Assembly (NCBI GenBank): GCA_016699245.1 | Contig: CP064968.1 | Location: forward strand, 379,331-443,330 | Reading direction: 5' to 3' | Source: Candidatus Kaiserbacteria bacterium | Lineage (GTDB): Bacteria > Patescibacteriota > Minisyncoccia > Phycocordibacterales > UBA918 | DNA: 64,000 nt | Part shown: one piece after another, positions 3,511-55,973 of the stretch | Numbering within the stretch: position 1 is the first letter of the stretch | Layout of the letters: each line of letters opens with the position of its first letter | Notes under the pieces: model-generated | What the model was told of the DNA's origin: nothing | What the model saw: only the letters and a program-made list of their open reading frames with translations | Databases searched by the model: none | Position numbers and translations under genes: made by a program

Positions 3511-4101
3511 ATGGGTCCACTTTGCAAAAAGTGGAAGATGGAACACGGAGATGATGATCGTGATGACGATGTAGAGGACGAGGACGAAATGGATGATGAA
3601 GATGAAGACGAAATGGATGATGAAGATGAAGATGGTGAAGAATTTGATGTTGAAGTTGAAATAGAAGACGGTGAAACTACTGTAGAATTCACATTTGATG
3701 GTGAAGACTACGAGGTAACCGTAGATTCTACTGAACTTGATGAGGTTCTCGATACTGTCGCAGACGTTATTGACGATGGTGATGACGCAAGCGACCTCGA
3801 CGATGACCTTTCTGATGCTATTGAAGCAGAACTTGAAGATGCAGAAGACGACAGCGCAGAGAGTGACGCAGAAAAGGCTATCGAAGATGCGGGTGACGCG
3901 ATAGACGACGCTCGTGAAGCATCCGATGATGCAGACAACGAAGAAGCGGGAGACAAGGTAGATGACGCTGAAGATGTGCTTGAAGAAGCACTTGCTGCAC
4001 TTGAAGATGAAGACTATGAGGAAGCAAAGGACCTCGCAGAAGAAGCAGAAGAACTTGCTGATGATGCAATGGACATCCTTGACGATGAAGAGACTCTATA
4101 A
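3511..4101 (+). CDS. extremely acidic (Asp/Glu-rich) protein; start uncertain, may be fused to the upstream PG-binding gene by a frameshift
   Basis: Long D/E runs (DDDRDDDVEDEDEMDDEDEDEMDDEDEDGEE...). ORF frame opens at 3361 overlapping the upstream gene without an obvious RBS. Followed by a strong terminator. Confidence 0.45.
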   Translation: MGPLCKKWKMEHGDDDRDDDVEDEDEMDDEDEDEMDDEDEDGEEFDVEVEIEDGETTVEFTFDGEDYEVTVDSTELDEVLDTVADVIDDGDDASDLDDDLSDAIEAELEDAEDDSAESDAEKAIEDAGDAIDDAREASDDADNEEAGDKVDDAEDVLEEALAALEDEDYEEAKDLAEEAEELADDAMDILDDEETL

Positions 4102-6067: not shown

Positions 6068-6790
6068 ATGAAAGAGAACGAGTTTCCAATGCGCCTTAAC
6101 AAGTTTTTGGCCGTCAAAGGGTTTGCCACACGCCGTGGCGCCGATACGCTTATTGAAAAGAAGCAGGTTTTTGTGAATGGTAAAATGGCTGTGCTAGGCC
6201 AGAAAGTTGCAGAGACCGACCGTGTGGAAATAAAGAACCACAAGCCGGTAGAGCACCGCTACGTACTCTACTACAAACCACGTGGAATTATTACCCACTC
6301 TCCAGCTCAAGGTGAAACTGATATTGCCTCAGACATTCTCACGCGTCACGGACTTACCGGACTCTTCCCTGTTGGCCGCCTCGACAAAGATTCCGAGGGG
6401 CTCATGGTACTCACTGACGACGGACGCATTACTGAACGCATACTCAATCCCGAAAAGAACCACGAGCGTGAATATGAGATAACAGTTGATAAACGTGTGA
6501 CACAGACATTTCTCAATGGTATGAGTAAGGGCGTGCGTATTGAAGGCTATATGACAAAACCGGCGCGCGCAGAGCGCGCGCCCCACTCTGAATACGTGTT
6601 CACCATCACCCTCACCGAAGGAAAGAAGCACCAGGTACGGCGCATGTGTGCAGCGCTTGGATACCAAGTCACTCAGTTAAAACGCACACGTATGCTTCAC
6701 TTTACTCTCAAGGCGCTCAAGCCTGGTGCAGTGTATGCTCTCAGAGCAAAAGAGATTCATTTCCTAAATGAATCTCTTGGCCTTCACTAG
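6068..6790 (+). CDS. rRNA pseudouridine synthase (RsuA/RluB family, S4 domain plus catalytic domain)
   Basis: S4-like N-terminus MRLNKFLAVKGFATRRGADTLIEKKQVFVNG; catalytic motif GRLDKDSEGLMVLTDDG; possible alternative start at 6089. Confidence 0.8.
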   Translation: MKENEFPMRLNKFLAVKGFATRRGADTLIEKKQVFVNGKMAVLGQKVAETDRVEIKNHKPVEHRYVLYYKPRGIITHSPAQGETDIASDILTRHGLTGLFPVGRLDKDSEGLMVLTDDGRITERILNPEKNHEREYEITVDKRVTQTFLNGMSKGVRIEGYMTKPARAERAPHSEYVFTITLTEGKKHQVRRMCAALGYQVTQLKRTRMLHFTLKALKPGAVYALRAKEIHFLNESLGLH

Positions 6791-10546: not shown

Positions 10547-10617
10547 TGGGGTATCGTCTAATGGTAGGACATCAGGTTTTGGTCCTGAGTATCGAGGTTC
10601 GAGTCCTTGTACCCCAG
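10547..10617 (+). tRNA. tRNA-Gln (anticodon TTG)
   Basis: tggggtatcg...anticodon loop ttTTGgt...T-arm cgaggttcgagtccttg...acceptor tacccca + discriminator g. 5' end identical in pattern to E. coli tRNA-Gln (UGGGGUAUCG). Confidence 0.85.
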
Positions 10618-11143
10618 CTTGTTAACAAAAAGTCCCGCAAGGGATTTTTTGTGTTACAAGCTGGAGGTAAGCACAGTGTGGGACACTGTGCGTCAAGGAC
10701 TCGAAAACCTTCTCGTGATATTATTCGAGTGAAGCGAAGAATAATATCCGAAAGGTGTACTGAATTCGTAGAATTCGAGTCCTTGTACCCCAGCTTGTTA
10801 ACAAAAAGTCCCGCAAGGGATTTTTTGTGTTACAAGCTGGAGGTAAGCACAGTGTGGGACACTGTGCGTCAAGGACTCGAAAACCTTCTCGTGATATTAT
10901 TCGAGTGAAGCGAAGAATAATATCCGAAAGGTGTACTGAATTCGTAGAATTCGAGTCCTTGTACCCCAGCTTGTTAACAAAAAGTCCCGCAAGGGATTTT
11001 TTGTGTTACAAGCTGGAGGTAAGCACAGTGTGGGACACTGTGCGTCAAGGACGAGAAGACCTTGCCTGCTATTTTGTGACGTAAGGAAACAAAATAGCGA
11101 CAAGGTGTACTGAAGTCGTAAACTTCGAGTCCTTATACCCAAC
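10598..11143 (+). repeat. tandem array of 176 bp units (three copies, third diverged), each beginning with the last 20 nt of tRNA-Gln (ttcgagtccttgtaccccag)
   Basis: Copies of the tRNA 3' end at 10598, 10774, 10950 and degenerate at 11124. Units 1 and 2 are near-identical. Unit 3 replaces the inner hairpin with a different but equally perfect hairpin. Each unit has a terminator-like hairpin aaaaagtcccgcaagggatttttt and a segment caaggactcgaa complementary to the tRNA T-arm. Confidence 0.85.
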
Positions 11144-11176: not shown

Positions 11177-11503
11177 TTGTATATGGCATCACTCAACACA
11201 CACCGAAGCGGTAGTGTTCGAAGTATCATTTTTCGAGAGAAAGATGAGTGGTTTGGTGTTGCTCTCGAATTTAACATTGTTGAGGTAGGAGATTCACCAG
11301 AGGAGGTGATGATGCTTCTTGATGAGGCAATAAAAGGGTACGTTGAGTCAGCCCAAAAGGCGAAACTTTCTGTTCGGACTTTAAATCAAAAATCTGATCC
11401 TGTATATGAAAAACTGTGGGAGTCTCAGTCAAAACCACACAGAAAAACAGGAAAGCAAATTTATCGAGTCTCCTCTCAACCAATTTCCGCACTTGTTTCA
11501 TAA
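11177..11503 (+). CDS. hicB: HicB-family antitoxin (type II TA)
   Basis: SIIFREKDEWFGVALEFNIVEVGDSPEEVMMLLDEAIKGYVES matches the HicB N-terminal (UPF0150-like) fold. Immediately precedes the hicA-like gene. Confidence 0.6.
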   Translation: MYMASLNTHRSGSVRSIIFREKDEWFGVALEFNIVEVGDSPEEVMMLLDEAIKGYVESAQKAKLSVRTLNQKSDPVYEKLWESQSKPHRKTGKQIYRVSSQPISALVS

Positions 11504-11505
11504 AT

Positions 11506-11739
11506 ATGCCTCGCGGTTTCAACAACTGGAGTGCGGCACAAGTCATGAAGTTTTTGAAACGTCATTCTTTTACGCATTCCCACACACGGGGCAGCCATTT
11601 TTATTATGTAGCCAAAGTGAATGGTATTGATAGACAAGTATGTGTACCCGTACACGCTGGTGATAGTATCCACCCAAAAACCATGAAATCGATTATCCTC
11701 CAATCAGGCATTTCTGAAAACGAGTGGAAGAATAACTAA
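11506..11739 (+). CDS. hicA: HicA-family mRNA interferase toxin
   Basis: MPRGFNNWSAAQVMKFLKRHSFTHSHTRGSHFYYV...VPVHAGDSIHPKTMKSIILQSGI fits the HicA/YcfA consensus. ATG at 11506 lies 2 nt after the hicB stop. Confidence 0.65.
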   Translation: MPRGFNNWSAAQVMKFLKRHSFTHSHTRGSHFYYVAKVNGIDRQVCVPVHAGDSIHPKTMKSIILQSGISENEWKNN

Positions 11740-46582: not shown

Positions 46583-46663
46583 GCTGGAGTGGTGGAATGG
46601 TATACACGTGCGACTCAAAATCGCATGCCGCAAGGCTTGAGGGTTCAAGTCCCTCCTCCAGCA
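46583..46663 (+). tRNA. tRNA-Leu (anticodon CAA)
   Basis: Acceptor gctggag/ctccagc, anticodon stem tgcga/tcgca with loop ctCAAaa, long variable arm, T-arm gagggttcaagtccctc. Confidence 0.85.
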
Positions 46664-46692
46664 CAGTGTTTCGGAAATCTCTTTATTAAAAC

Positions 46693-51699: not shown

Positions 51700-52530
51700 T
51701 TTACATGGACCTATTCTCTGTAAATGCTCGTTTTGCGGTCACGAGTTGCTAATTATTTTAGTTCGCTTCGCTTCTAAAATAATAAGCACCTTCATAAATT
51801 CTTTTATGTAAAAGAATTTATGAAGGGCTCAGAAAATATAATCGCTACGCTTATTATTTTCTGGCCACCCCAGCTCGCTGTTCATCACTTTTTGAAAGTG
51901 ACTCACAACGCTCGTGAAATAGTTTCCCAAACTATTTCACCCCGTCGAGCACGTACGTGACGCAGGTCACCTCTTTGCGGTCACGATAAAATTATCTCCC
52001 AGAAAATTTTATCTAAGTCTTTTCAAAGAAAAGTCTAAGCACTCTCGACCCCGACTCACTCGCCTAGCGGCATCGTTCCGTCTCCCGCAAAGGACCGCAA
52101 GCAAAGCAGTTTGCTTGCTACACAAAAGAACAGACACTTTCGTGTCTGTTCTTTTGTGTTCCTTTGCGGGCCCACGAGGGCTCGAAACTTACAGTTTCAG
52201 TACCCCTTTAGGATACTTTTCTTCATTTCATTCGAAAAGATATCTCTAAAGGGCTTCAAATCCTGATCGCACAGTGCCCCGCACTGTGCTTGGGCCCGCC
52301 CAGATATACAAAAAGCTGTCTTATGACAGCTTTTTGTATATCTGGGCGGGCCCACGAGGATTTGAACATTACATGTTCAGTACCCGTTGTGGCTATTTTA
52401 TTTCTTCGCTCTGCGAATCATAAAATAGCACGCAACGGCTTCGAGCCCGTGCTCCTGTTTGCATTCGCAAACAGATGCGCTTCGTGGGCCCGCCATATTA
52501 AAACACCTCATCAAATGAGGTGTTTTAATA
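51700..52530. repeat. non-coding hairpin array: series of perfect 8-30 bp-arm palindromes, including three units carrying copies of the tRNA-Trp 3' end (gcgggcccacgagg...) in both orientations
   Basis: Perfect palindromes at about 51793-51830, 51886-51910, 52105-52160, 52293-52356 (arms include tgggcccgcc) and 52484-52544 (arms = tRNA-Trp 3' end plus terminator). Direct copies of the tRNA 3' segment at 52166-52186 and 52346-52366. Confidence 0.8.
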
Positions 52531-52604
52531 TGGCGGGCCCACGAGGGCTCGAACCTCGGTCGCTGGTTTTGGAGACCAGAATTCTACCACTGAAATATAG
52601 GCCC
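52531..52604 (-). tRNA. tRNA-Trp (anticodon CCA), CCA end encoded
   Basis: gggcctatatttcagtggtagaattctggtctCCAaaaccagcgaccgaggttcgagccctcgtgggcccgcca. Confidence 0.85.
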
Positions 52605-53126: not shown

Positions 53127-54005
53127 TTAAATTTTATTTATGCTATAGATTCTTCCAGGTCCCGCTTTATAGGATGGGCTAAAACTTGAATCACTTACCC
53201 AAGAAAATGTTTTATTCGATGAACTGTTTGAAATTGTTTTTGTACATCCTGCATTCATGCAAATGCCCGTATGAGATCGTGAACCGTCAGTCACAATAAC
53301 AATATCCCCAGCTTTCGCAGCTGATTGATCAACCAATGTTCCCCTACCTCCTGCAAGTGCTTGCTCCATTGACTTCACACTATTACCATCAATGGGACTT
53401 ATGCCTGCATCTTCTAGTACTTTGTTTACAGCCCATGCGCATGCAAGTGAGCCACCACCAGGACCTCCTGCCGTTGAAAAACCTTGTGCCCCGAGTGCAG
53501 CAGCAGCAATTGATCCTGCACTTCCTCCACCCGGATTCGTCATACCACCCGGACCTGTATTTGTCGTAGCACCACCACTTGGTCCTGTCATCGTGGCGGT
53601 CATCGTTGGATTATCTACACACTGTACTGTACCCCACACCTCAATACCTTTGCCATCACTCATGACGGTCATAAGTATCGTGTTCACAATAAGCCATGCA
53701 CCGAGGAGGATGAAGAAACCTATGATAGAGTTCGACATCATTTCTTTTCCTTCTGAGACTTTTCCAGTGTTCCCTGCGGACATCACCATTTTCATGCCAC
53801 CAAAGGCGAACATGAGGGCAACGATAGTTGCAGATGCGCCTATAAACCAAGTCATCAATCCCTGCCCCATAGCAACAAAGTCACAGACGCGACACATTGG
53901 TTCGGGAGGACCACCACCACAGGGGACTAGGCCTGCAGCGTACGTGACAGAGGCGGTGAGAAGGAAGAGGCTTGTGATGAATAGTATGCGTTGGTTGGTG
54001 GTCAT
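53127..54005 (-). CDS. secreted two-TM pilin-like N-terminal module fused to a C-terminal CHAP/NlpC-P60-like cysteine peptidase/amidase domain
   Basis: Signal peptide plus two hydrophobic helices (VirB2/TrbC-like topology). C-terminus has nucleophile Cys in SLACAWAVN and downstream GDIVIV...SHTGIC His. N-terminal 160 aa about 97% identical to the 54605 paralog. Confidence 0.55.
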   Translation of the reverse strand: MTTNQRILFITSLFLLTASVTYAAGLVPCGGGPPEPMCRVCDFVAMGQGLMTWFIGASATIVALMFAFGGMKMVMSAGNTGKVSEGKEMMSNSIIGFFILLGAWLIVNTILMTVMSDGKGIEVWGTVQCVDNPTMTATMTGPSGGATTNTGPGGMTNPGGGSAGSIAAAALGAQGFSTAGGPGGGSLACAWAVNKVLEDAGISPIDGNSVKSMEQALAGGRGTLVDQSAAKAGDIVIVTDGSRSHTGICMNAGCTKTISNSSSNKTFSWVSDSSFSPSYKAGPGRIYSINKI

Positions 54006-54604: not shown

Positions 54605-55441
54605 TTATGGTCCATACTTTGTAATACACGCTTGAGCTTTTGCATTACAATTGGCACAGGTCCAACTACTATATCCGCTCTGTGACACCAGCTTTTTTGC
54701 TACCTCAGCGTTGCACGATGCATTGGTACAAGACGAAAAACTACTGCAACTCGTGCCTTTTGCAGCACTTTCCCAAGTTGATTTAATGACTTGAAATGTG
54801 CCACATGCACTACCGCTTTTATTTTGCGCTGTAGGATTACCAGAACTCTCTGTCATCGCGATACACGACATGACATTTGCTTGTGAAGGAGTAAAGCCTG
54901 CGGCTGTAAGCGCATTCACACTGCACGCCGGATTAAGGCTCCCACACTGTATACCACTTCCTCCCCCCGGATTCGTCATACCACCCGGACCTGTATTTGT
55001 CGTAGCACCACCACTTGGCCCCGTCATCGTGGCGGTCATCGTAGGATTATCAACACACTGTACCGTACCCCACACCTCAACACCTTTACCATCACTCATG
55101 ACGGTCATAAGTATCGTATTCACAATAAGCCATGCACCGAGGAGGATGAAGAAACCTATGATAGAGTTCGACATCATTTCTTTTCCTTCTGAGACTTTTC
55201 CAGTGTTCCCTGCGGACATCACCATCTTCATACCCCCAAAGGCGAACATGAGGGCAACGATACTTGCAGACGCACCAATAAACCAAGTCATCAATCCCTG
55301 CCCCATAGCAACAAAGTCACAGACGCGACACATTGATTCGGGAGGACCACCACCACAGGGGACAAGCCCTGCAGCGTACGTGACAGAGGCGGTGAGAAGG
55401 AAGAGTGCTGTGGTGAATAGTATGCGGTGGTTGGTGGTCAT
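54605..55441 (-). CDS. paralog of 53127: same pilin-like N-terminal module fused to a C-terminal lytic-transglycosylase (SLT)-like domain
   Basis: CIAMTESSGNPTAQNKSGSACGTFQV resembles the SLT catalytic E-S...GLMQ block; several Cys pairs; N-terminal 160 aa near-identical to 53127 gene. Confidence 0.55.
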   Translation of the reverse strand: MTTNHRILFTTALFLLTASVTYAAGLVPCGGGPPESMCRVCDFVAMGQGLMTWFIGASASIVALMFAFGGMKMVMSAGNTGKVSEGKEMMSNSIIGFFILLGAWLIVNTILMTVMSDGKGVEVWGTVQCVDNPTMTATMTGPSGGATTNTGPGGMTNPGGGSGIQCGSLNPACSVNALTAAGFTPSQANVMSCIAMTESSGNPTAQNKSGSACGTFQVIKSTWESAAKGTSCSSFSSCTNASCNAEVAKKLVSQSGYSSWTCANCNAKAQACITKYGP

Positions 55442-55544: not shown

Positions 55545-55561
55545 GCGTCGGTGGTGGAGTG
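55545..55561 (+). other. duplicate of the first 17-20 nt of tRNA-Tyr (atgcgtcggtggtggagtg) about 310 bp upstream of the intact gene
   Basis: Identical to 55854-55872 including 2 nt of 5' flank. Confidence 0.6.
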
Positions 55562-55660
55562 AGAAATGGGTGAGAAGCGAGTTTACGCAGCTTCGCAAGA
55601 CCTTGAGCAGTTTCTGCGAAAGGTGTACAGCAACTGTAAGTCGGGACCCATTTCGCAAGA

Positions 55661-55786
55661 GGTTGTAAGCAAAAGCTTTCTGATTGCACTCGTGTCATGT
55701 ATGAAAGTGAACTTTCATACTGTACACTCGTTTATCAGTCGATAGTTTACGAGTGAAGCGAGATAAACTATCATACAACCTGAACA
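55661..55786 (+). repeat. second copy of the structured element seen upstream of tRNA-Leu; contains the conserved-loop hairpin gatagtttacGAGTGAAGCGAGataaactatc
   Basis: Shares ggttgtaagcaaa(a)gctttctga..tcagtcgatagttt..tcatacaacctgaac with 46379-46497. Hairpin loop matches the loop of the tRNA-Gln repeat hairpin (ttattcGAGTGAAGCGAAGaataa). Confidence 0.65.
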
Positions 55787-55855
55787 GTCCCTGTAAAGGA
55801 GTCAATCACAACAGACTATTAAGTTATAGAGGTCTGAAAAGAACAATACAATCAT

Positions 55856-55938
55856 GCGTCGGTGGTGGAGTGGTCAATCACAACAGACTGTAAATCTGTC
55901 GACTTCGGTCTTCGCTGGTTCGAATCCAGCCCGGCGCA
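55856..55938 (+). tRNA. tRNA-Tyr (anticodon GTA) with long variable arm
   Basis: Acceptor gcgtcgg/ccggcgc (one G-U), anticodon stem acaga/tctgt with loop ctGTAaa, variable arm gacttcggtc, T-arm gctggttcgaatccagc. Confidence 0.85.
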
Positions 55939-55973
55939 CAAACCAAACATACATAACACGTAAGCGTTACGTA

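Follow-up and report, generated by a model that had tools for sequence, protein, structure and literature searches.

The window analysed here, a stretch of 64,000 nucleotides from a Candidatus Kaiserbacteria genome, carries arrays of a short repeated unit behind its tRNA-Gln(UUG) and tRNA-Trp(CCA) genes. The unit is 110-190 nt long, non-coding and heavily folded; in the Gln array it repeats with a period of 176 nt in 3.1 copies (TRF). Read 5' to 3', the tRNA is followed by a terminator-like hairpin and by the reverse complement of the tRNA 3' end, which consists of a part complementary to the acceptor strand, then a hairpin (hp1), and then a part complementary to the T-loop and T-stem (T comp). 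The second half of the unit comprises a stem (P3) bearing another hairpin (hp2), the tetranucleotide GTAC, a small GTA-loop hairpin fused to a T-loop, and a copy of the tRNA 3' end. A core made of P3/hp2, GTAC and the GTA hairpin was classed as type A, and other cores as type B or further types. Five units in the window are of type A, three behind tRNA-Gln and two behind tRNA-Trp; related variants lie farther behind tRNA-Trp and upstream of tRNA-Tyr. The features are as follows (CM, covariance model).

10547-10618, plus strand: tRNA-Gln(UUG), host of the first array, T-loop starting at 10598 (ARAGORN; Rfam tRNA, 59.9 bits)
10619-10794, plus strand: Gln unit 1, type A (sequence; TRF period 176; CM match at 10691-10788, E = 2e-19)
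10624-10655, plus strand: terminator-like hairpin of Gln unit 1
10659-10669, plus strand: acceptor complement of Gln unit 1
10671-10691, plus strand: hp1 of Gln unit 1
10694-10705, plus strand: T comp of Gln unit 1
10706-10715, plus strand: P3 5' arm of Gln unit 1
10717-10748, plus strand: hp2 of Gln unit 1
10749-10756, plus strand: P3 3' arm of Gln unit 1
10757-10760, plus strand: GTAC of Gln unit 1
10761-10778, plus strand: GTA-loop hairpin of Gln unit 1
10774-10794, plus strand: tRNA 3' copy of Gln unit 1
10795-10970, plus strand: Gln unit 2, seemingly identical to unit 1, hp2 at 10893-10924 (CM score equal to that of unit 1)
10971-11143, plus strand: Gln unit 3, an older distal unit (CM, E = 5e-17)
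51740-52164, minus strand: two more, type-B-like units behind the Trp array (core type also found in other genomes)
52165-52344, minus strand: Trp unit 2, type A, hp2 at 52204-52253 (sequence; CM, E = 1.3e-19)
52345-52530, minus strand: Trp unit 1, type A, hp2 at 52392-52429 (sequence; CM, E = 4e-17)
52531-52604, minus strand: tRNA-Trp(CCA), host of the second array (ARAGORN; Rfam)
55545-55855, plus strand: variant element 5' of tRNA-Tyr (sequence; weak CM matches, E = 0.64 and 2.9)
55856-55939, plus strand: tRNA-Tyr(GUA) (ARAGORN; Rfam)

Gln unit 3 has the same left scaffold as units 1 and 2 up to T comp, which is degenerate (CGAGAAG); its hp2 (11058-11088, loop GACGTAAGGAA) differs, and its tRNA 3' copy (11127-11143) is decayed, with 3 mismatches. 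Behind tRNA-Trp, the T comp of unit 1 (GGGCTCGAA) fits the T-loop of tRNA-Trp itself and the terminal 3' copy of that unit is a variant, TTCAAATCCTCGTGGGCCCGCC; the T comp of unit 2 (AGGATTTGAA) fits the 3' copy of the unit that precedes it, Trp unit 1. The Gln and Trp units have hp1 in common, that of Trp unit 2 (52269-52289) being almost identical to the Gln version. The cores of the type-B-like units read GAGTCGGGGTCGAGAG...CGTGACC in the first and GAGCTGGGGTGGCC...CTCGTGACC in the second, which also has an hp2-like hairpin (approximately 51748-51787, loop AAGCGAAGCGAAC). The Tyr element differs in architecture, with its junction in the D-loop, on the 5' side of the tRNA. It is flanked by duplicated 5' tRNA pieces (55545-55561 and 55801-55817) and contains a degenerate type-A/C core (55583-55654) and an hp2-like hairpin (55741-55772); its 'type C' module is also present in L103, one of the loci from other genomes that are referred to below by such numbers.

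The hairpin recurs at tRNA genes as part of a larger unit

A sequence-only reading of the window had described the hairpin at 10717-10748 and 10893-10924 (Gln units 1 and 2), at 52392-52429 and 52204-52253 on the minus strand (the Trp units) and at 55741-55772, 5' of tRNA-Tyr, and each of these copies was found again in the sequence. Two copies of hp2 were added to that list, one at 11058-11088 in Gln unit 3 and one at approximately 51748-51787 on the minus strand, farther downstream of tRNA-Trp. Every copy in the window is oriented like its tRNA, as the earlier reading had it, and the tRNA-Leu locus in the window has no hairpin copy. With up to 3 mismatches allowed, there are 3 occurrences of the loop motif in the window against 0.05 expected, and the adjoining motif GGTACTGAAnnnGTAnnnTTC occurs 5 times against 0.16 expected; the recurrence of the hairpin pattern is far above chance. 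A covariance model built from other genomes recovered the five type-A units of the window (E = 1e-19 to 5e-17). The hairpin does sit inside a larger unit, as had been proposed, but it is not an element in itself; as hp2, it is the distal arm of P3, a longer stem within a unit of ~176 nt. Similarly, the stems covary heavily, but the description of them as freely varying goes too far, as an A/T-rich consensus (..ATATTTT../..AAAATAT..) with conserved bulges is kept across genomes. The consensus of the hp2 loop is GAG-nn-(loop)-nn-CGAA.

The family is widespread in Patescibacteria

The pattern TCGAA-N(40-70)-GTACTGAAnnnGTAnnnTTCRA was scanned against 185,579 species genomes, with one genome per species, and gave at least 120 loci; among the matches listed, all but three of those checked were in Patescibacteria MAGs. 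An intact tRNA on the same strand lay 90-160 nt upstream of the motif in ~85 of 120 loci, and the host tRNAs were of at least 16 identities, with the units always in tRNA orientation, both again among the matches listed. The family is conserved from Saccharibacteria to Paceibacteria. When tRNA genes that had not been selected by the scan were considered, a T-loop complement was present downstream of 35 out of 78 (45%), compared with ~1% by chance. Two arrays in public MAGs contain gaps filled by runs of N.

In the window, only tRNAs reached the gathering score of Rfam 15, with no match to another family and no self-cleaving ribozyme, and scans by E-value, covering the Gln array and four loci that contain type A and B units, gave nothing credible; an sX4 match in L124 overlaps tRNA-Ser and is below threshold. 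A full-text literature search returned no description of the element. Thus, the earlier statement that no described class matches holds for both Rfam and the literature searched. Inspection by eye gave no fit to the hammerhead (CUGA, no GA/GAAA), to an HDV-like ribozyme or to a k-turn.

The fold of the unit is under selection

At the positions left free in the scan pattern (nnn/nnn), the two sides are perfectly complementary in 114 of 125 units among the matches listed. Across 131 distinct units, 91.8% of cells are paired compared with 63.7% in shuffles, the covariation score is 0.614 compared with 0.153 (slid controls, 0.06-0.11), and double changes occur in 23 of 25 pairs. For Gln unit 1 the fold has a z of -11.7 as RNA and -12.4 as DNA. 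The folding of the unit is under selection. The hairpin does belong to a longer repeat, but covariation is abundant in it, unlike in an ordinary repeat, and it is no degraded IS unrelated to tRNAs, the association with tRNAs being strict. The earlier proposal of a single family of tRNA-associated structured elements is therefore borne out: it is phylum-wide, is bound to tRNA 3' ends in tRNA orientation, and has stems that covary.

The conserved unpaired nucleotides are GTACTG, a GA/GAA internal loop and the bulges. The plus strand is the better folder in 84 of 106 units, a wobble T.G is conserved on the tRNA-sense strand in 118 of 131, and the type-B helices, as read from alignments, also have G.T wobble pairs on that strand; as a test of RNA against DNA, wobble asymmetry is weak (82 G.T versus 63 A.C; 57 versus 52 G.U in another count). 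T comp, the GTA hairpin and the 3' copy are able to form mutually exclusive helices, in the manner of a switch. Two ideas about the hp2 apex were rejected. One was that of a DNA mini-hairpin (GCGAAGC or GNA triloops; PMC13037366, PMC3201870): no more than 44 of 120 units have a GNA triloop with a 2-bp closure at the apex of hp2, compared with 25 in shuffled sequence, which is a weak hint. The other, a kissing interaction of the hp2 loop (YGAA) with the T-loop (UUCR), is contradicted by L087, as read from the alignment.

Units occupy a junction in the T-loop

An occupied locus consists of an intact tRNA, then the element, then a second tRNA 3' segment. The duplicated segment, of ~16-20 nt, begins within the T-loop, at a point between positions 56/57 and 59/60, and extends to the tRNA 3' end; in variant units the tRNA-derived copy begins at G57, and the reverse complement ends exactly opposite T54. 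Of 86 units, 23 have extra bases (2, 3 or a 14-nt hairpin) precisely behind position 59 of the T-loop, and the 14-nt hairpin insertion keeps the pairing on both sides. The distal 3' copy has the sequence of the tRNA in 50 of 86 units, which fits recent insertion or gene conversion and also selection for pairing. The alternative of an intron in the T-loop, whose true 3' exon would be the distal piece, was rejected, as many distal pieces are decayed or carry insertions. The units are also not a relic of the group I introns of CPR tRNAs, which lie at another site, anticodon-loop position 35/36, and whose description does not mention downstream elements (PMC13011429). At two loci an intron-containing tRNA lies upstream of a unit.

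The presence or absence of units at related tRNA loci, a comparison suggested by the sequence-only reading, could be followed in 48 metagenome loci with the tRNA-Gln of the window, mostly 100% identical. About half were empty, in a relative sense given that some 'empty' sites hold other hairpin elements, and the others carried different, non-homologous cores; loci with a common upstream gene differed in occupancy or in core type. A CCAAC/GTCG trailer lies directly behind the tRNA in 8 of the 22 loci that have neither T comp nor 3' copy, whereas in the occupied loci L138, L142, L147, L170 and L182 it lies behind the distal 3' copy and never behind the tRNA. Metagenome contigs thus hold both empty and occupied tRNA-Gln sites, with the trailer displaced, which supports the idea of a miniature tRNA-targeting integrative element and favours an insertion element over a mere co-transcribed small RNA.

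In the Gln array of the window the proximal two copies look identical and the distal copy is decayed. Elsewhere, L070 and L124 contain near-identical tandem copies, two units at different tRNAs in L034 apparently have an identical P3/hp2, and mosaic exchange at the TCGAA boundary is seen in L151, L159, L164 and L170. Larger gene-bearing inserts occupy the same tRNA sites in L078, L147 and L154; the ORF-bearing inserts of L147 (a CYTH-domain gene) and L154 (an ORF read as Nudix-like) end in a hairpin fused to the T-loop.

No recombinase gene lies near the units

Clustering of the ORFs in ~8-kb regions around 120 loci revealed only housekeeping neighbours, with no enrichment of a recombinase, transposase or reverse transcriptase, and none of these was found among the 12 window ORFs scanned against Pfam (the housekeeping genes for DacA, FtsQ, DprA, MiaA, DnaX, Dus and YceG, plus HicA). 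An HUH Y1 transposase (RAYT/TnpA) was absent from the window ORFs examined and from the locus ORF clusters, and no integrase remnants were seen in the ~8-kb loci. The 110-190-nt units themselves contain no ORFs, and no sigma-70-like promoter was found inside them. A terminator-like hairpin with A and T runs separates tRNA and unit in 71 of 103 cases (69%); a simple terminator scanner made no call on this first hairpin, as its A and T runs pair with each other. The units of L023, L025 and L046 have no terminator hairpin, and so must be co-transcribed with the tRNA.

Discussion

We lean towards the view that the hairpin is an arm of a modular, non-autonomous insertion element, specific to Patescibacteria (CPR), that targets the 3' part of tRNA genes with a folded single strand as its substrate. 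Insertion would put the element behind an intact tRNA, with a second T-loop-to-3'-end segment behind the element and the original trailer behind this distal copy. With nothing encoded in the units and no recombinase in their vicinity, a trans-acting enzyme would have to move them, and as asymmetric bulges, conserved loops and compensatory changes have been kept, this enzyme most likely recognises the folded single strand of tRNA sense. The strand may be single-stranded DNA, as it is for integron attC and for phage CTX with its folded attP, or it may be an RNA copy. Crossover would take place in the T-loop, and a duplex resembling the target would be rebuilt by pairing between the complement of the tRNA end and the tRNA 3' copy. 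On this view, tandem arrays are built by repeated insertion, unequal recombination and gene conversion, with modules swapped between copies within a genome. Against insertion stand the lack of an enriched recombinase, transposase or reverse transcriptase in the ~8-kb loci, with none among the 12 window ORFs scanned, and the problem of specificity: an element that supplies a new tRNA 3' end would be expected to give a chimeric, dead tRNA on entering a different tRNA, whereas the same core families are found at tRNAs of many identities, each time with flanks that match perfectly. Foldback or templated synthesis might provide a complement and a copy specific to the target, which is a guess only; we know of no mobile element with templated target matching.

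The units share several properties with known systems. Like integron attC sites they are short, lie in arrays next to a fixed site and all in one orientation, have an imperfect terminal hairpin that is conserved in structure rather than in sequence, with extrahelical bases and a variable tip, and use bases of the neighbouring unit for a hairpin-closing pairing that spans the crossover point; like cassettes they are non-coding or ORF-bearing, and the presumed substrate is a folded single strand. P3/hp2, with its conserved bulges and variable apex, the co-oriented arrays and the inserts of L147 and L154 are what attC hairpins would lead one to expect. However, no intI or attI was found in the ~8-kb loci or the window genes scanned, and the fixed site is the tRNA T-loop. 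The R''/R' consensus (RYYYAAC/GTTRRRY) is lacking, the junction being nnnTTC|GA(N)TCC and the complement ending in ...TCGAA; the fold has three domains rather than a single hairpin, and the tRNA-specific complement and target copy are absent from attC.

Elements that enter tRNA genes by means of a tyrosine integrase (islands, prophages and the Prochlorococcus tycheposons; bioRxiv 10.1101/2020.12.28.424599) also insert in the 3' part of the tRNA with crossover in a loop, supply the new 3' end, leave the old 3' fragment and trailer distal, and build arrays of tRNA 3' fragments by repeated insertion. The units likewise have a flanking direct repeat of the tRNA 3' segment and a trailer displaced distally. 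Unlike those elements, they are only 110-190 nt long, have no integrase and usually no gene, carry a covarying folded core in place of arm-type protein sites and an inverted target copy, and show the same core families at many tRNAs. REP/BIME sequences (RAYT, HUH Y1) and IS200/IS605 PATEs are also short extragenic palindromes. A conserved tetranucleotide precedes the hairpin in both REPs (GTAG) and units (GTAC), and REP/BIMEs are clustered in arrays at gene 3' ends, homogenised within a genome and mobilised in trans on single-stranded DNA, as the units would be. REPs, however, are scattered behind many genes rather than tied to tRNAs, and have neither a target complement nor a target duplication, which in the units is ~16-20 nt. 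In phage CTX, which depends on the host XerCD, two inverted target-like copies on one strand pair to mimic the double-stranded target; it too forms tandem arrays, and its recombinase is host-encoded, as that of the units would be, but its target is dif rather than the tRNA T-loop, and the units have no genes and a fold and enzyme that are predicted only. Nor is the pattern that of a classical MITE, as the inverted repeat (complement plus tRNA 3' copy) is target-derived and differs with each tRNA, and the duplication is ~16-20 nt.

Some of these observations might instead reflect a functional structured RNA, arising by readthrough of transcription that starts at the promoter of the tRNA or by processing into a tRNA-like minihelix, although we regard this as rather unlikely. 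Its complement and 3' copy would form alternative helices with the T-arm, and it would have a role in the maturation of the tRNA, in termination, in insulation or as a decoy; a protein or ligand would bind to its core, and such an RNA may have been domesticated from the mobile element. The units are strictly co-oriented with the tRNA and lie directly next to it, which speaks for an RNA, as do strong covariation with conserved unpaired nucleotides, the better folding of the plus strand (84/106 units), the switch-like exclusive helices of T comp, the GTA hairpin and the 3' copy, the pairing that the 14-nt hairpin insertion keeps on both sides, and the three loci (L023, L025, L046) at which co-transcription must occur. 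The conserved wobble pairs on the sense strand and the conservation from Saccharibacteria to Paceibacteria fit a functional RNA equally well. However, about half of the identical or near-identical tRNA-Gln genes have no unit and the others have non-homologous cores, a terminator-like hairpin precedes the unit in 69% with no internal promoter, distal units and 3' copies decay, tandem arrays and ORF-bearing inserts share the same site, and G.T pairs are barely more frequent than A.C.

Direct repeats of the tRNA 3' end are, as Williams reportedly set out in 2002, the classic signature of integrase-mediated insertion into tRNA genes, and their presence at the units, together with the larger gene-bearing inserts at the same sites (L078, L147, L154), raises the idea that the units are leftovers (attP arms between core repeats) of larger tRNA-integrating prophages or islands whose own integrase has since been deleted. 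This is improbable, as random deletion would not leave more than 130 units, from across a phylum, that agree precisely in architecture and size and have covarying stems; moreover, the ~8-kb loci hold no integrase remnants and no IMG/VR viral contig matched. A viral origin in general was rejected on the same scan, in which the 17 matches to the core motif were all due to chance, inside coding regions and without the hairpin. Slippage that duplicates the tRNA 3' flank locally and in tandem, with drift afterwards and neither mobility nor function, could account for the identical look of the proximal two Gln units and the near-identical copies of L070 and L124, but it is hardly credible: it leaves unexplained the same core at unrelated tRNAs and across the phylum, the compensatory changes, the inverted copy of the tRNA end, and the mixed units within one array behind tRNA-Trp.

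Beyond the insertion element that we prefer, it is conceivable, if doubtful, that Patescibacteria have an unrecognised cassette-type recombination system that docks at the T-loop. Its modules would be bounded by hairpins, 110-700 nt long and mostly non-coding, some with an ORF; an enzyme that acts in trans and is possibly encoded by the host would insert them as folded single strands, and the direct and inverted target copies would arise by templated foldback.

The genomes of CPR/Patescibacteria are among the smallest and most streamlined of bacteria. In the genomes sampled, roughly half of the tRNA genes not selected by the scan nonetheless have folded non-coding modules behind them, often in tandem. 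If the units are mobile, they would represent a new way to parasitise or use the tRNA T-loop, the most conserved sequence of the cell, by an element that carries no genes and whose target matching would necessarily be templated rather than fixed. If they act as RNA, they would form a large new class of structured RNA tied to tRNA biology, in a phylum for which, to our knowledge, almost nothing is known of RNA regulation. On either reading tRNA annotation and assembly are affected, the units mark hot spots for gene cassettes, and the cultivable Saccharibacteria offer a system in which this can be tested.

The hairpins are parts of larger tRNA-associated units

The sequence-only reading had noted hairpins with a conserved loop and varying stems at three of the four tRNA genes of the window, and had taken them for one family of tRNA-associated structured elements. 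Inspection of the sequence located every one of these hairpins, confirming the observation, and the single-family interpretation was also supported, without a fit to any known family. None of the hairpins is isolated; all are parts of larger units. Both the loop motif and the motif GTACTGAA..GTA..TTC occur in the window far more often than expected.

tRNA genes (ARAGORN and Rfam) and distal units in the window
10547-10618, + strand: tRNA-Gln
46583-46664, + strand: tRNA-Leu
52531-52604, - strand: tRNA-Trp
55856-55939, + strand: tRNA-Tyr
about 52164 to 51740, - strand: two type B units, further downstream of tRNA-Trp

Behind tRNA-Gln, Tandem Repeats Finder reported a period of 176 nt in 3.1 copies (10598-11140). 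Reading in the tRNA sense gave one order of parts for every unit behind tRNA-Gln and tRNA-Trp.

Order of parts in the units behind tRNA-Gln and tRNA-Trp (tRNA sense)
Part 1: terminator-like hairpin containing runs of A and of T
Part 2: reverse complement of the tRNA acceptor 3' strand
Part 3: hairpin hp1
Part 4: T comp, the reverse complement of the T-stem 3' strand and T-loop, ending exactly opposite T54
Part 5: stem P3 (7-9 bp), whose distal arm, hp2, is the hairpin first noticed
Part 6: GTAC
Part 7: small GTA-loop hairpin, its 3' arm being the TTC of a T-loop
Part 8: tRNA copy from the T-loop to the 3' end

Parts 5 to 7 make up what we call the type A core. The type B core of the Trp-distal region reads GAGnnGGGGTCGaGA, hairpins, then TCGTGACC, and one of the two units has another hp2-like hairpin, with the loop AAGCGAAGCGAA. 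The tRNA-Tyr element, on the 5' side of its tRNA and flanked by duplicated 5' tRNA pieces, is a third variant that also occurs at L103 (L numbers denote loci from other genomes and metagenomes). At six loci (L023, L025, L046, L056, L074 and L078) the terminator hairpin is lacking, and purine-rich GAACGAAGTGAG / GAGCGAAGCGAAG, in essence the motif of the hp2 loop, comes within 3-5 nt after the tRNA; one motif thus caps two different helices of the element.

A covariance model (R1; 107 rows, 103 from other genomes and four being the window's own distinct units) recovered exactly five units when run on the window (E = 1e-19 to 5e-17), with weak matches in the Trp-distal region and on the 5' side of tRNA-Tyr.

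The fold is conserved through compensatory change

The 198 nt at 10598-10795 fold with z = -11.7 under RNA parameters and -12.4 under DNA parameters. In a model-based alignment of 133 matches (131 distinct), 91.8% of paired cells were complementary compared with 63.7% after shuffling, and the covariation score was 0.614 against 0.153 for shuffled and 0.06-0.11 for slid controls. Changes on both sides were seen for 23 of the 25 pairs in the distinct units, RNAalifold found many compensatory pairs in P3 and the GTA hairpin, and the unconstrained triplets that flank the GTA loop were perfectly complementary in 114/125 units. The conserved unpaired features are GTACTG and a bulged GAG/C where P3 meets hp2, and the variable hp2 tip sits over a conserved GA/GAA internal loop, the loop motif of the sequence-only reading. 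Judged from the alignment, these patterns indicate that the structure is under selection.

The units are spread across the phylum and linked to tRNAs

GTDB, with one genome per species, was scanned with the pattern TCGAA-N(40-70)-GTACTGAAnnnGTAnnnTTCRA, and at least 120 loci matched. The matches listed came from MAGs titled Saccharibacteria, Paceibacteria/Parcubacteria (Taylor-, Nomura-, Zambryski-, Kaiser- and Lloydbacteria), Minisyncoccia, 'Patescibacteria group' or unclassified bacterium; the only exceptions listed (Pseudoalteromonas, Planctomycetota and Chitinispirillaceae; three checked) were chance matches of unrelated sequence. In IMG/VR the core motif gave only chance matches in coding sequence.

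About 85 of the listed loci have a same-strand tRNA 90-160 nt upstream of the motif, and the identities comprise Ser, Cys, Gly, Tyr, Gln, Leu, Pro, Val, Arg, Asn, Glu, Ala, Lys, Ile, His and Asp. Among tRNAs of the same loci that the pattern had not picked, 12 of 79 are followed by a type A unit, and behind 35 of 78 (45%; chance expectation about 1%) T comp lies no more than 220 nt downstream, with type A, type B or other cores. Some listed loci without a detected tRNA have an intron-containing tRNA or decayed units upstream. At L062 (about 6230-6400) and L115 (about 2430-2600) the upstream tRNA was missed by ARAGORN and the sequence contains GATGATGATATAGTCC, which we take to resemble a group I intron core; a type A unit nonetheless comes after the 3' exon. 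This would fit the intron-containing CPR tRNAs of PMC13011429, in which group I introns lie at position 35/36 and units behind tRNAs are unmentioned.

Runs of N, marking assembly gaps, lie within arrays of identical tandem units in public MAGs (L070, 3600-3720; L117, 1840-2060). Such repeats break short-read assemblies, so unit counts from MAGs are likely to be underestimates.

Occupancy and displaced trailers at tRNA-Gln, and the junctions of the units

When metagenomes were scanned with a 29-nt piece of the window's tRNA-Gln, 48 loci matched, and in most of them the tRNA is identical to that of the window. Where the sequence reached far enough downstream, about half of the loci lacked both T comp and the 3' copy, and the remainder carried type A, type B or other cores. 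Units are therefore present or absent behind tRNAs that are identical or nearly so: the window, L158 and L183 share an upstream gene and differ in occupancy or core type, as do L138 versus L165 and L148 versus L173.

In 8 of the 22 loci lacking T comp and the 3' copy, a CCAAC/GTCG trailer directly follows the tRNA. At occupied loci the tRNA is followed by element-specific sequence and never by this trailer, which is displaced to a position after the distal 3' copy (L138, L142, L147, L170 and L182; in degenerate form in the window). This is the arrangement that would be expected from insertion into the 3' part of the tRNA gene with target duplication. The inverted tRNA copy ends at T54, the tRNA-derived sequence of variant units begins at G57, and 23 of 86 units carry 2 or 3 extra bases, or a 14-nt hairpin, exactly after position 59; these positions place the junction, as read from the units themselves, inside the T-loop. 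Where a unit stands between two unlike tRNA 3' copies, T comp agrees with the preceding one, as in both Trp units of the window and at many other loci.

Of the Gln units, the proximal two look identical, and the distal one is diverged, with a decayed 3' copy and an identical left scaffold up to T comp. The hp1 hairpin is nearly alike in the window's Gln and Trp units and in L170, a related metagenome locus with a different core; L151, L159 and L164 have one left scaffold in common, but their cores differ or are truncated; L021 and L064 have a common core and unrelated terminator hairpins and hp1; and in L034 two units at different tRNAs have an apparently identical P3/hp2. Modules have therefore been swapped at conserved boundaries, among them TCGAA| and GTACTG.

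Other inserts and neighbouring genes

The tRNA-Gln site also holds ORF-bearing inserts, one of about 700 nt with a CYTH-domain gene (L147) and one whose ORF we read as Nudix-like (L154). Both are closed at their end by a perfectly paired hairpin of 13-15 bp, ..ACGCGTCTCGTGC-TA-GCACGAGACGCGTT, which is fused to bases of the T-loop; a tRNA 3' piece in decay comes next, and then the ancestral trailer. The palindrome of this end recurs in the 'ancestral' CCAACTCGTGC.. trailer.

Genes beside the units in the window
11177-11503: 108-aa ORF, no Pfam match, preceding and overlapping the HicA ORF
11416-11739: HicA toxin gene (PF07927, Pfam), directly after the tRNA-Gln array
53127-54005 and 54605-55441, - strand: ORFs of 292 and 278 aa, between tRNA-Trp and tRNA-Tyr

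The 108-aa ORF may encode a HicB-like antitoxin partnering HicA. The pair (11177-11739) might have arrived as a cassette, but has no other 3' copy of tRNA-Gln behind it. The N-terminal half is nearly identical in the 292- and 278-aa products (a CGGGPPE..CRVCDF motif preceded by a signal or transmembrane segment); they have different C-termini and look like duplicated secreted or pilin-like proteins. A GATGAA-rich tandem repeat at 3568-3670 (periods 6, 24 and 30), unrelated to the hairpins, encodes, at a guess, an acidic low-complexity stretch inside an ORF. The window genes scanned are ordinary chromosomal genes, and none of the genes that recur beside the units is a recombinase, transposase or reverse transcriptase.

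Discussion

Literature searches turned up no description of the element, and no Rfam family matched the units. At L124 (6641-6818, - strand) a sub-threshold match to sX4, a proteobacterial sRNA (51.9 bits; gathering score 70), spans tRNA-Ser and the start of the unit; the tRNA portion probably accounts for it. The closest likenesses to the element are integron cassettes, tRNA-integrating islands and REP/BIME repeats, but it departs from each of them in defining features.

The main rival explanation, that the units are functional RNAs, possibly a domesticated element, is viable and compatible with insertion. The folded molecule may be either RNA or DNA. The fold is better on the tRNA-sense strand in 84/106 units; on that strand a T.G wobble at the base of the GTA hairpin is conserved in 118/131, and the type B helix GGTCG/TGACC has a conserved G.T wobble in examples read by eye. 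In the stems, G.T pairs barely outnumber A.C; a terminator-like hairpin separates tRNA and unit in 71/103 cases, and no sigma-70-like promoter was found within the units. GNA triloops, GTA and GCGAAGC among them, typify very stable DNA mini-hairpins (PMC13037366, PMC3201870); at the hp2 tip such triloops are only mildly enriched.

Under the insertion reading, a trans-acting recombinase would recognise the folded sense strand, T comp might pair with a tRNA 3' copy, mimicking the target like an attC or CTX-like substrate, and the T-loop would be the crossover region. Each insert carries a complement and a copy matched to its own tRNA; more speculatively, foldback synthesis running off at a T54 nick would match the complement's end point. 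The best-supported interpretation is that the units are insertion elements, modular and non-autonomous, which form a family specific to the phylum and dock in the T-loop of tRNAs.
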